From: Candidatus Aminicenantes bacterium | GTDB lineage: Bacteria > Acidobacteriota > Aminicenantia > Aminicenantales > JAFGAV01 | Assembly: GCA_963702835.1 (NCBI GenBank) | Contig: OY969762.1 | Span: 2,423,601-2,487,600, forward strand | DNA length: 64,000 bases | Direction of reading: 5' to 3' | Part shown: positions 8,692 to 59,903 of the stretch, piece after piece | How positions within the stretch are numbered: position 1 is the stretch's first letter | Layout: each line of letters opens with the position of its first letter | Notes under the pieces: model-generated | Seen by the model: only the letters and a program-made list of their open reading frames with translations | What the model was told of the DNA's origin: nothing | Database searches by the model: none | Translations under genes and position numbers: made by a program

Positions 8692-8768
8692 GGGGTGGCG
8701 CGGCGGAGGGGCTCCCCGCCTGCGCGCAGCCTGGCGAGCACAGCCGGGGAGGAGCCGCGACAGGACCC
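8692..8768 (+). repeat. GC-rich ~77-nt intergenic repeat element, copy A
   Basis: GGGGTGGCGCGGCGGAGGGGCTCCCCGCCTGCGCGCAGCCTGGCGAGCACAGCCGGGGAGGAGCCGCGACAGGACCC. Near-identical copies lie at 31537 and 59826. The ends are imperfectly inverted (GGGGT..CGCGGC / GCCGCG..ACCCC). Confidence 0.6.
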
Positions 8769-8865
8769 TACACGTTTCTGCTTTCATCACGGAAATTGAG
8801 ATGCTTACCCCTCGACTGATTGACGGGGCGCAAGTTTTTGCCTATATTATAATCAGAGTTATAAA

Positions 8866-9417
8866 ATGCGCCGATTGGTTTCAGCCGCGGTCATTCTTCT
8901 CCTGGCCTTCTCGGCTGGTTGGGGCCAAAGCCTGACCGAAGCGGCTAAAAAAGAAAAGGAAAGACGCGCGGCTTTTAAGAACAAGCCCACGACTATCATA
9001 ACCAACGATACGCTGCTCAGGATTAGCAAACAGGAGGCGGTCAGCACGACCCGGCCGGAGGCCGAGGCGGAGCCGGCCGCGGAAGTGCCTGCACCTACCG
9101 ATAATCCGAACCCCTCAAATACGATCGTGCCCCAGACTTCCACAATCCAGGCCACCCCGCTCGTCGGACAGAGTGTGGATTCTTCAAGCGGGGGAGTCCC
9201 CACCAATCAGGAATCCCGTTGGCAGAAAGCCAAGGAATATGCCGACCTGCTGGAGCTCAAGCTCAACGCGCTGTGGCAGGAATTCTACAGCCTGAACGAC
9301 ATGACCCCTCGGGATAAGATCCAGCAGGATATCAGCGACACATTCGAGAAATACACCCAGGCCCGGCAAGAAGAAGCCAAGGCCTTGGCTGATCTCCAAA
9401 AACAGAAGGGCCGCTAG
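8866..9417 (+). CDS. hypothetical secreted protein
   Basis: 183 aa. N-terminal signal peptide (MRRLVSAAVILLLAFSAGWG), a Pro/Thr/Glu-rich low-complexity middle and a coiled-coil-like C-terminus. TATATT/TATAAT-like -10 and an ATG follow repeat copy A. Confidence 0.5.
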   Translation: MRRLVSAAVILLLAFSAGWGQSLTEAAKKEKERRAAFKNKPTTIITNDTLLRISKQEAVSTTRPEAEAEPAAEVPAPTDNPNPSNTIVPQTSTIQATPLVGQSVDSSSGGVPTNQESRWQKAKEYADLLELKLNALWQEFYSLNDMTPRDKIQQDISDTFEKYTQARQEEAKALADLQKQKGR

Positions 9418-9568
9418 GACTGAGCCTATCCCTCTCTATCAGGCCGGCCCGGCCGTCCATCCCCCAGCCAGAATAAACGCCGGCCGCAGGTGAACCGTCT
9501 TTTAAGTTCCTTGTCGAAATATGCAGTTCCCTGCAGCCAGGAACCGTTAAGAAGCAGGACTCAAACTC

Positions 9569-10435
9569 TCAGCGGAAATAAAGGAAAGAGACCTGCAGGC
9601 CCAGCTCCCTCTCGTCCTTGGAGCCGGGGATCTTTTTGGCCGGGACGAAGGATTGGTCCGTGGCCACCAACAGGTAGAATTCGTCCTTGGCCCCCAGCAT
9701 CCCCTTCTTGACGTTGTAAAATTTTTCGAAAGTGCTGTCGGGCGGGATGAATTCGTCCAGGACCTGGTCGTTGATTTTAAGGATGACCTGCTGGTCCTTG
9801 AGGAGGTCCTTGTTGACGCCGCCCCGGATGACCAGCAGAGCGTCCCGGTGGGGGTTGTCCACGACACAGCGGGCTTCCTTGGCCGTCCAGCGCCACTGCT
9901 TGAGGAAGGCCTCGGGGTTGATTTCCAGGTCGTACCAGCCGCTTTCATAAATGATCTCGGGCGTGCCGGCGGGCGGGGGAACGACTTTGATCACGTCCTT
10001 AAGGATCTCGGACTTGGATTTGCCGGTGCGGTCCAGCGGCGAATAGAAGCCGACGGACAGTTTCAGCTGTTCGGTCCCGCTGAACTGCGGGTCAAACTCA
10101 TCGATGAAGGTGGGGATGTAAATGCGGCGGGTGTAGGCGTAGGATTTGCCGGGCTGCCATTGGGAAGTAGGGATGTCGGGCAGATGATCGTCCTGGAACA
10201 GCATGTTGTCTTTATGCCAGAAATGAACGAAGACGTTGTAATCCTTGTTCATTTTCTGGAAATCGGCGCCGGTTTTCCATCCGTAACTCATTTCGGTGAA
10301 GAGGTTGTCGGACAAGGGCTCCGCCGAAAACTTCACCGCCAGCTCAACGCCCTTGACCTGGTTTTTCTTCTGGCAGGACAGGGCGAAAAAGACGAGCAAA
10401 ACAACCGTCAGGCCGATGAGTATTCTTTTTTTCAT
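9569..10435 (-). CDS. hypothetical lipoprotein
   Basis: 288 aa. Lipoprotein signal with lipobox (MKKRILIGLTVVLLVFFALSC). No recognised catalytic motifs. Confidence 0.55.
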   Translation of the reverse strand: MKKRILIGLTVVLLVFFALSCQKKNQVKGVELAVKFSAEPLSDNLFTEMSYGWKTGADFQKMNKDYNVFVHFWHKDNMLFQDDHLPDIPTSQWQPGKSYAYTRRIYIPTFIDEFDPQFSGTEQLKLSVGFYSPLDRTGKSKSEILKDVIKVVPPPAGTPEIIYESGWYDLEINPEAFLKQWRWTAKEARCVVDNPHRDALLVIRGGVNKDLLKDQQVILKINDQVLDEFIPPDSTFEKFYNVKKGMLGAKDEFYLLVATDQSFVPAKKIPGSKDERELGLQVSFLYFR

Positions 10436-57559: not shown

Positions 57560-58618
57560 TTATTCATGGTTCAGCCCGTACCGTCCGGCCGCTTCGGCCG
57601 CCACGCGAAGAATCAGGTCGGAATAGGTGTAGCCCGCTGTCCGGGCGGCCTTGGGCAGGCAGGAATTCTCCTCGGGGTTGGGCAGGATCCCGGGCAAGGG
57701 GTTGAGCTCCAGGATGTGGGGCTCGTCCCGCTCGTCCAGCCGGACATCCACCCGGCACCAGTCCCGGATGCGGAGGACGCCGCAGGCCTTCTTCACCAGG
57801 TCGGCGATCCGGCCGGCCAGCGCCTGGGGGATATCGGCCGGGCAGCGGAAAATGGGCAGCGGGTTCTGGGGGGTGTCCCACACCCACTTGGCTTCATAGG
57901 AATAAATGGGGTTGGCGCCGGCGGGCAAAAGGCTGTGGTCGATCTCGACGATAGGCAGAACTTCATAGTGCGGATGGTTGCCCAGCACGCCTACCGTGAA
58001 CTCGCGGCCGCCGAGGAACTTCTCGATGATGACCGGCTCGTTGTAGCGGCCGACGATCTCGGCCACTCGTTCGGCCAGCTCGCTCTTGGTCCGGACCACG
58101 CAGTTGTCTTTAATGCCCTTGCTCGATCCTTCATATAAAGGCTTGACGATGGCCGGCAGCGCAATGTTCTTGGGCAGAGTGGAACCCGGGTCGGCCAGCC
58201 AGAACGGCGGGTTGGGGATGCCGTAGTAATTCAGGATCTCCTTAGCCCGCGACTTATCCAGACAAATTCCCAGAGTCAAAGGGTCGGAGCCTGTATAGGG
58301 AATCCCCAGGATCTCGCACAGGACGGGAACATGCGACTCGCGGTTGGGCCCGTACAATCGTTCGGCAATGTTGAAGACGAGGTCGGGCCTTACTTTACGG
58401 ATACGGCCGTAAGCCTGGTCGTCGGATTCGATGGGGAAGACCTGGTGCTTCTCGCTGAGCGCCCGGCTGATCGCTTGAATGGTCTCGTCCGAGTCGCACT
58501 CAGCGAGCATATCAAGTGGAGGCTCGTCGTCTTCTTCGCCCCAAGTCTCGACGAACTTTGAGGAATGAAGCGACGCGGCCATCCCGTTTTTCGAACTGTA
58601 GAGCAATGCGACTTTCAT
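57560..58618 (-). CDS. D-alanine--D-alanine ligase-family ATP-grasp enzyme
   Basis: 352 aa. MKVALLYSSK..., LPAIVKPLYEGSSKGI and HILELNPLPGI motifs of the Ddl-like ATP-grasp fold. First gene after a 265-nt AT-rich intergenic region. Confidence 0.8.
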   Translation of the reverse strand: MKVALLYSSKNGMAASLHSSKFVETWGEEDDEPPLDMLAECDSDETIQAISRALSEKHQVFPIESDDQAYGRIRKVRPDLVFNIAERLYGPNRESHVPVLCEILGIPYTGSDPLTLGICLDKSRAKEILNYYGIPNPPFWLADPGSTLPKNIALPAIVKPLYEGSSKGIKDNCVVRTKSELAERVAEIVGRYNEPVIIEKFLGGREFTVGVLGNHPHYEVLPIVEIDHSLLPAGANPIYSYEAKWVWDTPQNPLPIFRCPADIPQALAGRIADLVKKACGVLRIRDWCRVDVRLDERDEPHILELNPLPGILPNPEENSCLPKAARTAGYTYSDLILRVAAEAAGRYGLNHE

Positions 58619-58883
58619 GGCACGATTCTTGCTTGTCCCCTCGCTTTGCTTAGTGGCCCTGTCAATCTTTCTCTCAAATTTCCAATTTCTTTAATTCAAA
58701 TTATAAACTATTTTTTCCTTTTGTCAATACCTTTTTTATACTTTTTTTTGGGTTGACACAAAAAGTGAACACCATTCCTAGTGGCGAACATGAATATTAG
58801 CCAGCGCGCCTCGGACCTGTCAGGAAATGAAGCGGCCGAATCGCCTTCCCGGTACGTACCCTACTATTTTTATAGATTTTTTC

Positions 58884-59699
58884 CTAGAGCAGGAACGTTG
58901 TATCCAGATAGAAAGCGCGCGGCGAAAGCGGCCGCCCGGAAAATCCGGAGCCGGAGGGGATATTCATGATCAAATAAGCGCCCGCCCGTCGGATATCTTC
59001 AAGACTTGCCCGCGGCAAGCCCTTTTCCACATGAACAACCAGCCCGCCTCCGCGCCGGCGGCCGGCCCGCCTGATATCTTCAAGCAAAGCCTGATCTGCG
59101 CTGAGCTCTAGGTCTGCCTCCGATATATGAACCCACAGGCCGGCCTCGGCCAAATTCTCGAGTTCCTTGAAAAGCCGGCCATGATGATAATAAACCATCT
59201 CGGCTCGGCCGGCCCTTTGTCCTGCTTTGATATCGACTAAAAGAGCCGGGTCGCGCGGCCTGTCCTTATTTGAAATATGAAGATCGATTCCGCTGCGGAC
59301 CAGCTCTTTAATCATTTCCAGGGTCAAACTTCCCGTCCTCCCCTCATCGCCGATTTCTCCGTACTGGAAGAAGACCGTCCAGGCTCCCGTGGGGCGGCCC
59401 GCTTTTTGAATCCGCGCCAGAGCGGCCACATCGGCCCGGACATCATCGGCGGTGTAGAGGTCGGCGCCGGCCCGGCCCAGCCATTCCAAGCTGAAAACAT
59501 CGAGCTTTCCCGAATCCACCAGCCGGAACCGCTTTCCCTTCCGGCGTGCGGTTTGGGCCGCGTCCAGCAGCCAGGAAAATTCATGCTGGTCGTCCCGAAC
59601 GGTCACCCCCTCCCGCAGCCGAGCCTGGTCCAGCAGACGAAACCCCCGGTCAGCGGGTGTGATTTCTATGGGCAGGCCTTCCGACGATTCTCCGGACAT
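58884..59699 (-). CDS. hypothetical protein with internal repeats
   Basis: 271 aa. Repeated L..L..AG..L modules (LEWLGRAGADLY..., LENLAEAGLWVH..., LEDIRRAGAYLI...). No recognisable catalytic motif. Confidence 0.5.
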   Translation of the reverse strand: MSGESSEGLPIEITPADRGFRLLDQARLREGVTVRDDQHEFSWLLDAAQTARRKGKRFRLVDSGKLDVFSLEWLGRAGADLYTADDVRADVAALARIQKAGRPTGAWTVFFQYGEIGDEGRTGSLTLEMIKELVRSGIDLHISNKDRPRDPALLVDIKAGQRAGRAEMVYYHHGRLFKELENLAEAGLWVHISEADLELSADQALLEDIRRAGRRRGGGLVVHVEKGLPRASLEDIRRAGAYLIMNIPSGSGFSGRPLSPRAFYLDTTFLL

Positions 59700-59825
59700 T
59701 CTTTATTTCCCTCCATGATTTTCAGGAAGCAAAATAATAACACATGCCCTGGCTGAGTCAAGAAAGCATATTAAGGGAGAAGCAATTCTTTATCCGGGGC
59801 ACCTGATAATCATGAAGGGGTGGCG

Positions 59826-59903
59826 CGGCGGAGGGGCTCCCCGCCTGCGCGCAGCCTTACGAGCACAGCCGGGGAGGAGCCGCGACAGGACCCCAGAAAG
59901 AAC
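59826..59903 (+). repeat. GC-rich ~77-nt intergenic repeat element, copy C
   Basis: GGGGTGGCGCGGCGGAGGGGCTCCCCGCCTGCGCGCAGCCTTACGAGCACAGCCGGGGAGGAGCCGCGACAGGACCC, about 100 nt upstream of queC. A TTGCTTACTT motif follows, as in the other copies. Confidence 0.6.

Follow-up and report, generated by a model that had tools for sequence, protein, structure and literature searches.

The stretch of DNA analysed here, termed the window, comprises 64,000 nucleotides (nt) of Candidatus Aminicenantes bacterium (assembly GCA_963702835.1, contig OY969762.1, positions 2,423,601 to 2,487,600), has a GC content of about 60% and contains five copies of a palindromic repeat. Copies 1 to 3 carry a GC-rich core of 78 nt (8692-8769, 31537-31614 and 59817-59894, all on the + strand and with 89-95% mutual identity), copy 4 carries a short core of 38 nt and copy 5 is truncated. 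A gapped pattern of two arms gave 4 matches in the window against 0 in 100 shuffles. An original prediction, made from the sequence alone, had described a 77-nt element in three full copies. These repeats are real, but the mobile unit is 152-156 bp long with the 78-nt core inside it, and the third copy, placed at 59826-59903, had been set 9 nt too far to the right.

The full element is a palindrome of 152-156 bp (variants span 115-243 bp) with no coding capacity of its own. The only open reading frames (ORFs) on the copies are spurious read-throughs, as had been suspected of the N-terminal extensions in the ORF track. The element consists of AT-rich terminal inverted repeats of ~25 bp, short variable linkers and the GC-rich central hairpin, and its limits are set at 152-156 bp because 9-bp direct repeats sit directly outside the outer inverted repeats. 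The consensus of the terminal repeat is GGAAGCATCTCC..T..TGTGAT or, with its degenerate start, G[G/A/T][A/T]AGCATCTCC..T..TGTGAT; derived from 94 ends, it reads G, G/A/T, A/T, A, then GCATCTCC, a few variable bases and TGTGAT. The GA(G/A)(A/T)TGCTTAC motif previously noticed downstream of each core exists, but it is the right terminal inverted repeat, GAGATGCTTAC being the mirror image of GGAAGCATCTC, which lies ~40 nt upstream of each core. The AT-rich -10-like stretch assigned to the repeat lies outside it and belongs to a host promoter, still present in an empty-site allele, whilst the GC-rich arms taken for transposon ends are internal helices.

When a 170-nt stretch round each long core was folded, one long rod resulted (z -3.65, -3.57 and -2.13), and the short-core copy likewise folds as a rod (z -4.47). 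The whole rod is equally stable on both strands, with no strand specificity. The rod-like fold that had been proposed thus holds for the whole 155-nt element, which beats shuffles, but not for the core alone (z -0.1 to -1.4, no better than shuffled sequence). An internal CUCCCCG/CGGGGAG helix is paired in every fold, as are the terminal arms. The 10-bp palindrome CTGCGCGCAG occurs in all three long window copies, but elsewhere the sequence is mostly CCGCGCGCAG and the palindrome itself is not conserved.

Copy 1 (8653-8808, +) is 156 bp long, belongs to subfamily A and folds as a hairpin of -82.7 kcal/mol (z -3.65). Its terminal repeats are GGAAGCATCTCATTTTCCATGATG on the left and, as reverse complement, GTAAGCATCTCAATTTCCGTGATG on the right, and the flanking duplication is 8/9 identical (left 8644-8652, CCCTCGGCT; right 8809-8817, CCCTCGACT). 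A sigma-70-like host promoter (8820-8848, +; TTGACG, 17-nt spacer, TATATT) starts 2 nt past the right duplication. All full copies had been called intergenic, which is not strictly so for copy 1, whose left arm forms the 3' end of ORF 6253-8691 (+). This ORF of 812 amino acids is ComEC (Pfam domains Competence, DUF4131 and Lactamase_B). Copy 1 was inserted 5 nt ahead of the original comEC stop codon, and the last two codons of the gene (...PSTD*) have been exchanged for 13 element-encoded codons and a stop within the left arm.

Copy 2 (31505-31656, +; 152 bp) belongs to subfamily B, carries the compensatory pair GGCACGGC/GCCGTGAC of that subfamily in its core and is flanked by a perfect 9-bp duplication, TTATTCCCC on both sides (31496-31504 and 31657-31665). 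The same insertion was found in one metagenome contig. To its left lies a promoter-like site for a divergent EamA gene (31466-31493, -; TTGAAA, 16-nt spacer, TATAAT), the -35 box of which begins 2 nt beyond the left duplication. To its right, upstream of dnaX, a weak -35 box, TTGGAG (31673-31678), stands exactly 7 nt past the duplication and is followed, after a 17-nt spacer, by the -10-like TAATAT (31696-31701). Copy 3 (59779-59933, +; ~155 bp, ends uncertain by 1 nt) belongs to subfamily C, has the terminal repeats GAAGCAATTCTTT.../...AAAGAATTGCTTAC, and its outer repeats are flanked by the duplication at 59770-59778 (ATTAAGGGA) and 59935-59943 (TTTAAGGGA). Two divergent host promoters bracket it (59734-59977), one on the - strand (59761-59734; TTGACT, 16-nt spacer, TATTAT) and one on the + strand upstream of queC (~59948-59976; TTGAAA, 17-nt spacer, TATCAT). 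All long window copies abut promoter-like sites outside the element.

The reverse complement of the 3' arm of the core occurs at 40389-40404 (one mismatch, GCT for GCG) and at 41916-41931, and these arms had been read as two inverted half-copies beside a class V aminotransferase gene. The arms are present, but one belongs to a complete short-core element and the other to a truncated copy of an expanded-core variant. The complete element, copy 4 (about 41877-41991, -; ~115 bp), has a core (41916-41953) made of the two basal arms and a 9-nt loop, outer arms that resemble subfamily C, and a score of 43.5 bits with a minimal covariance model. It has no recognisable duplication and is found in all related assemblies, and we therefore regard it as an older insertion. 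Its loop, CGACCTTTC, is also found in the expanded type, marking the short core as a deletion derivative. Copy 5 (40350 to ~40457, -) has kept a single terminal repeat together with the 3' basal arm and some of the apical insert; its full-length relatives, at three other loci, measure 233-243 nt. It abuts a remnant + strand ORF (~40375-40689). This fragment of ~100 amino acids starts inside copy 5, has a coding-like GC content at third codon positions and no Pfam match, and probably represents what a deletion beside copy 5 has left of the 3' part of a gene; the arrangement is identical in GCA_041479055.1. As copies 4 and 5 are of different subfamilies, they are independent insertions and do not form a composite transposon round the aminotransferase gene. 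The minimal basal-motif covariance model, which penalises long cores, gave no further convincing copy in the window.

Relatives were found well beyond the window, the element being a common one among Aminicenantes. Among the GTDB species representatives searched, an exact 24-mer of the core occurred in 7 contigs, all of one Candidatus Aminicenantales metagenome-assembled genome (MAG). We then have, from a scan of JGI metagenomes with a degenerate pattern of the two basal arms and a 9-49-nt gap, at least 120 loci, mostly at different insertion sites. Among the matches listed, 78/131 hold the same long core within the same kind of AT-rich arms, and these fall into at least three subfamilies, corresponding to window copies 1, 2 and 3. 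A profile search with the terminal repeat yielded further elements with differing centres, including the expanded cores of the three relatives of copy 5, in which the same basal arms surround an insert of ~130 nt, and, at two loci, an unrelated GC-rich centre. The core module is exchangeable: short, long, expanded and unrelated cores stand between the same terminal repeats. At locus L111, a 28-nt perfect-looking palindrome, GTAAGCATCTCCTTTTCGGAGATGCTTC (4835-4863), consists solely of two terminal-repeat tips, with TTGACA at the canonical offset described below; it may be an extreme deletion derivative or the footprint of an excision.

Mobility is evident from the flanks. Direct repeats of 9 bp (at most 1 mismatch) lie flush with the terminal repeats in 19 of the 122 copies with complete flanks, the total length of the element being 151-156 bp. 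The count of duplications peaks at 9 bp, with 1-3 copies at 10-11 bp, and when the right-hand window was displaced by 3, 7 and 12 nt as a control the 9-bp count dropped to 3, 2 and 0. Moreover, copy 3 is missing from four other assemblies (MAG GCA_041479055.1, two Logan assemblies and one JGI metagenome). There the QueC protein is identical to that of the window, the ~165-170 bp carrying copy 3 are gone, the flanks of the empty site are ~95% identical and both flanking promoters are intact. A second candidate empty site, in another pair of loci, was too diverged for use. Insertion sites differ between genomes, with at least 67 distinct sites. The duplications, the differing insertion sites and the empty queC site together demonstrate that the repeat family is mobile. 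Two contigs end inside the core, and the repeat therefore fragments assemblies.

Taken together, these data make it highly probable that the five repeats are copies of one non-autonomous DNA transposon family, that is, of a miniature inverted-repeat transposable element (MITE). The family has the small size, the terminal inverted repeats, the duplication of fixed length and the many loci with insertion polymorphism that define such elements. A lineage-specific, MITE-like mobile repeat was the first candidate of the original prediction, which had also suggested a search for target-site duplications; the 9-bp duplications bear it out. According to the review literature, prokaryotic MITEs measure 100-250 bp, have no ORF, carry terminal inverted repeats of 20-30 bp and make target-site duplications (7-9 bp in QMITE2) (PMC10969869). 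They form a stable stem-loop over the whole element and occur in many intergenic copies, often just upstream of genes (PMC10969869, 2024 review). In these general properties the window family agrees with the MITEs that have long-hairpin transcripts, namely Correia/CREE (Neisseria), QMITE (Coxiella), MITEAba12, RUP, ERIC and Nezha. Unlike them, it has a GC-rich, covarying and exchangeable centre that is more conserved than the terminal repeats, and its point of insertion keeps a nucleotide-exact distance to the -35 hexamer. Correia elements carry promoters of their own; beside the window family the promoter is that of the host.

The family is new as judged from Rfam, from plasmid records and from the literature searched, none of which gave a match. 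Over the window, Rfam at gathering thresholds returned three tRNAs only, and the element itself had no match up to E = 10 (best 14 bits against a threshold of 50). Scans of viral contigs gave 0 matches to the core and 4 to the terminal repeat, all of the latter in unrelated start-codon regions. BLAST of plasmid records with the element and with a GC-rich variant gave no match, a full-text literature search on the arm sequences returned unrelated primers only, and a search for Aminicenantes together with MITE returned nothing relevant. Such a MITE family accounts for spurious ORF extensions and for contig breaks in this uncultured phylum, and it provides a marker for strain typing.

The more important property of the family is its spacing to host promoters. 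With shared insertion sites removed, 67 sites with 79 ends were available. At 22 of these ends (~28%) a TTG begins at a distance of exactly 16 nt from the element, 7 nt past the 9-bp duplication, while other offsets average ~1.8 (~2%). Requiring a match of at least 5/6 to TTGACA left 13 ends at offset 16, against a maximum of 3 elsewhere. A -10-like hexamer at a spacing of 16-18 nt follows at 17/22 of the offset-16 ends, against 10/57 of the other ends. Outward-facing sigma-70-like sites were found at 31/89 unique ends, inward-facing sites at 7, and the shuffles gave 3.1. Where both ends of an element were readable the signal was present in 21/34 (~60%), on one side only in 20 of these 21, and either end of the element may face the promoter. 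An independent set of 26 terminal-repeat ends, taken from variant-core copies, showed the same offset (6 at offset 16, at most 3 elsewhere). No conservation is seen between the duplication and the -35 hexamer, and the empty allele still has the promoter, which is therefore host DNA. Gene positions around the elements, obtained with a rough gene caller, place ~40 elements between divergent, ~55 between tandem and ~6 between convergent genes, mostly in 5' regions.

A one-nucleotide-sharp peak is hard to explain by selection alone, and the spacing appears to reflect targeting. In the mechanism that we propose, a transposase encoded elsewhere would bind the terminal repeats and insert the element through cuts staggered by 9 bp, giving rise to the 9-bp duplications. 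Insertion is non-random: in most cases the duplicated 9 bp are placed exactly 7 bp ahead of a -35 hexamer of the sigma-70 type, at roughly promoter positions -51 to -43, such that the element lands beside promoters and leaves them intact. The 78-nt repeat is its exchangeable cargo module. Judged from the offsets, target-site choice may be anchored on the -35 hexamer or on promoter-bound polymerase: the transposase or a partner could recognise the hexamer directly, for example through a helix-turn-helix like that of sigma region 4, or dock on RNA polymerase at the promoter. We know of no report of a bacterial transposon or MITE that inserts, exact to the nucleotide, 7 bp upstream of a -35 box. 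A fixed nucleotide spacing of MITE insertions to the -35 is described neither in the review cited above (PMC10969869) nor in the other literature searched. If the spacing does reflect targeting, it would amount to a natural mechanism for placing DNA beside promoters without breaking them and to a means of mapping promoters directly in organisms that cannot be cultured. It would also show how a transposon finds safe sites at hundreds of places in a compact genome, and would mean a systematic replacement of the upstream (UP-element or activator) region at many promoters. Tn7 at attTn7 and Ty3 at Pol III start sites likewise insert at a fixed distance from a landmark and spare host function. The window family resembles them in sitting at a fixed distance from its landmark and not inside it; the difference is that its landmark is a generic sigma-70 -35 hexamer, which offers hundreds of possible sites instead of one.

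Several observations weigh against this account of a targeted MITE family. A clean duplication was seen in no more than the 19 copies given above; the others have decayed or stand at the end of a contig. Between the empty-site allele and the exact sequence predicted for the pre-insertion state there are several substitutions and a small indel; because of the indel we regard the empty allele as a related allele and not as the direct ancestor. Conservation is higher in the core than in the terminal repeats, an unusual state for a MITE that suggests a separate constraint on the core. Where intergenic spacers are very short, selection could in principle sharpen the fixed -35 spacing. Lastly, an autonomous element with matching terminal repeats was found neither in the window nor in the ~0.95 Mb of fetched loci.

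Those ~0.95 Mb, searched with the terminal-repeat profile, held short elements only and no repeat pair 0.7-3 kb apart. Clustering of neighbouring genes showed no enriched transposase: the clusters were of common families (ABC ATPases, carboxyltransferases), together with artefact clusters from ORFs reading through the repeat. No transposase turned up beside any copy or within the window. A duplication fixed at 9 bp indicates staggered cutting by a transposase, and the mover would presumably be of the DDE type. Two insertion sequence families were considered as parents. IS1 makes 9-bp duplications, and its repeats (IS1A of E. coli K-12) are identical to the terminal repeat at 13/26 positions, which equals the best chance match in 1 kb; it was rejected. 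IS66 terminal repeats are 20-30 bp long, start with GTAAGCG and are flanked by 8-bp direct repeats (PMC11946415). The right ends of the three long window copies start with GTAAGCA, but the family varies over its first four bases (G, G/A/T, A/T, A), and its duplication measures 9 bp where IS66 has 8. Derivation from IS66 is not borne out, GTAAGCA occurring at a subset of ends only and the duplication having the wrong length; IS66 stays a weak lead.

The core itself comprises a basal helix (P1), an asymmetric purine-rich internal loop (5' GG or UGG opposite 3' ACAGG or ACAGGA), a second helix (P2) and a variable apical part; the basal hairpin is GGGTGGCRCGGC...GCCGYGACAGGACCC with this asymmetric loop. 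Aligned with one another, 65 distinct full elements show compensatory changes in the core helices and scarcely any broken pairs, for example at pairs 62-120 (AU 48, GC 15, GU 2), 80-107 (GC 33, AU 32) and 83-104 (CG 42, UA 23). The basal motif, G-GGTGGC-RCGGC ... GCCGY-GACAGGACC-C, also recurs in unrelated palindromic repeats, on contigs of 43-80% GC. One of these is a ~95-nt palindromic repeat with the conserved flanks ACGCCGATCGGGCG ... CGCCCGCCACGGC, on contigs of 72-80% GC, and the motif was also met with other long palindromic arms in AT-rich contigs (three loci). Covariation was assessed on 44 distinct representatives of the motif, in which P1 lies outside the search pattern. P1 scored 0.268, shuffles 0.127 (0/500 reached the score of P1) and slid partners at most 0.124; one P1 column pair reads CG 21, GC 10 and AU 7. 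On either side of the pattern, G8 and C46 show little or no variation. By-eye comparison with the consensus sequences of the kink-turn, the sarcin-ricin loop, the CsrA site, the sigma-54 promoter, attC and the two-tetrad G-quadruplex gave none that fits the core.

We also observed the hairpin in other arrangements. At locus L105, one of the sites of the ~95-nt repeat, two inverted copies of a 66-nt GC-rich variant (6443-6508, -, and 6844-6909, +) lie 335 nt apart; the surrounding ~150 nt are inverted-symmetric as well, in a manner that resembles a REPIN-like or composite arrangement. A 75-nt version stands in frame in ribosomal-protein genes of GC-rich metagenomic organisms: S1 (three loci, one with a partial second copy), S17 (two loci) and L10 (one locus). 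The insert encodes AGPVAAEDSSSSQAAGEEPTAAPPA, which lies within the acidic tails of S1 and L10 and within the N-terminal extension of S17, and it is antisense to the motif strand. A protein search with the peptide gave 2 uninformative hits. Rickettsia palindromic elements (RPEs) are also found in frame in genes, as the related hairpin is here; RPEs are AT-rich and not known outside Rickettsia, and the window copies differ from them in being intergenic, apart from the 3'-terminal overlap with comEC.

The basal motif may be likened to hairpins bound by structure-specific proteins, and is a putative binding site for a protein on single-stranded DNA or RNA. We offer two linked readings tentatively, as a pair that may well prove wrong: that the transposase or a partner reads sigma-70 promoters, as set out above, and that the basal hairpin is an independent module across distant lineages. 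In the latter case the hairpin, on RNA or single-stranded DNA, would ride different palindromic repeats and would have entered ribosomal-protein genes. Sharing of the module across distant lineages would imply a widespread protein partner, and its conservation to the nucleotide over contigs of so different GC content makes the basal hairpin a candidate ligand for such a protein.

Unlikely, although the best of the alternatives to a MITE, is the reading that the core hairpin is a selfish unit akin to repetitive extragenic palindromic (REP) sequences or REPINs, moved as single-stranded DNA by an enzyme of the HUH/RAYT type, and that it has colonised AT-rich palindromes of Aminicenantes. The occurrence of the basal motif with its covarying P1 outside the AT-rich arms on unrelated contigs, the in-frame inserts in S1, S17 and L10, and a core conservation that exceeds that of the terminal repeats would all suit such a unit, as would the conserved asymmetric loop, a feature of hairpins bound by structure-specific enzymes. 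Like REPs, the repeats are GC-rich imperfect palindromes with conserved asymmetry that are extragenic, of high copy number and able to form hairpins. However, in the Aminicenantes family the core always occupies the same internal position and the duplications flank the outer repeats. REPs carry a conserved GTAG and, to our knowledge, have neither terminal repeats nor a target-site duplication; the window elements differ on all three counts, with terminal repeats, 9-bp duplications and no GTAG at the hairpin base. Among the neighbouring genes no RAYT was seen, neither RAYT nor TnpA was enriched and no HUH-like gene recurred. Moreover, the different cores between identical terminal repeats fit recombination or deletion as well as insertion.

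The original prediction had also considered a structured cis-regulatory RNA or a small RNA (sRNA) family acting on the downstream genes (a secreted protein gene, dnaX and queC). The hairpin is indeed kept by compensatory base changes and the copies do lie upstream of genes. At the R-Y pair of the basal motif (GC 22, GU 12, AU 9, AC 1) G-U is 12 times commoner than A-C, and this excess is a hint that the strand written here is the folded one. Yet the elements lie upstream of the -35 hexamer and so outside the transcript of the downstream gene, they occur in both orientations to their neighbours (among tandem cases ~22 sense and ~33 antisense, no preference), the whole rod is equally stable on either strand, there is no Rfam match even at the permissive threshold given above, and the duplications and the empty site show that the positions arise by transposition. 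We consider an RNA function of this kind very improbable. A bias towards the sense orientation was also considered, as the five window copies look sense, yet there is none across the loci. Nor is the core an intrinsic terminator: no terminator-like site overlaps any copy, and the core is followed by mixed sequence and not by a U run. That the palindromes are instead a conserved operator set upstream of promoters by selection, as part of a regulon, is scarcely credible, since the fixed position relative to the -35 hexamer and the TGTGAT/ATCACA within the terminal repeats are outweighed by 9-bp duplications of unrelated sequence, by presence/absence polymorphism with an intact promoter in the empty allele, by functionally unrelated neighbour genes and by the existence of truncated and nested copies.

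Other repeats were noticed in the window. A ~355-nt intergenic stretch at 34350-34712 (+) is closed by a 25-nt inverted repeat (34356-34380 / 34683-34707) and has an RNA fold of -206.5 kcal/mol against -142.5 +/- 5.9 for shuffles (z -10.8); Rfam gave no match to it at E <= 1. Segments of it are found again at 829-919 of the window and at four other loci; therefore it looks like a nest of copies from other families of palindromic repeats and not like a single non-coding RNA. In a long intergenic region upstream of a tRNA (29191-29277), two AT-rich 44-nt direct repeats (GACATTTTTTG..ACAAAT...; 28855-28898 and 29072-29115) are 70% identical and 217 nt apart. Adjacent to one another on the - strand are two paralogous ATPase genes (25967-27076 and 27088-28818) that are 74% identical over an 81-nt stretch containing a Walker-type motif. 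They probably encode type IV pilus or secretion ATPases, and an ORF at one of the metagenomic loci is of the same kind.

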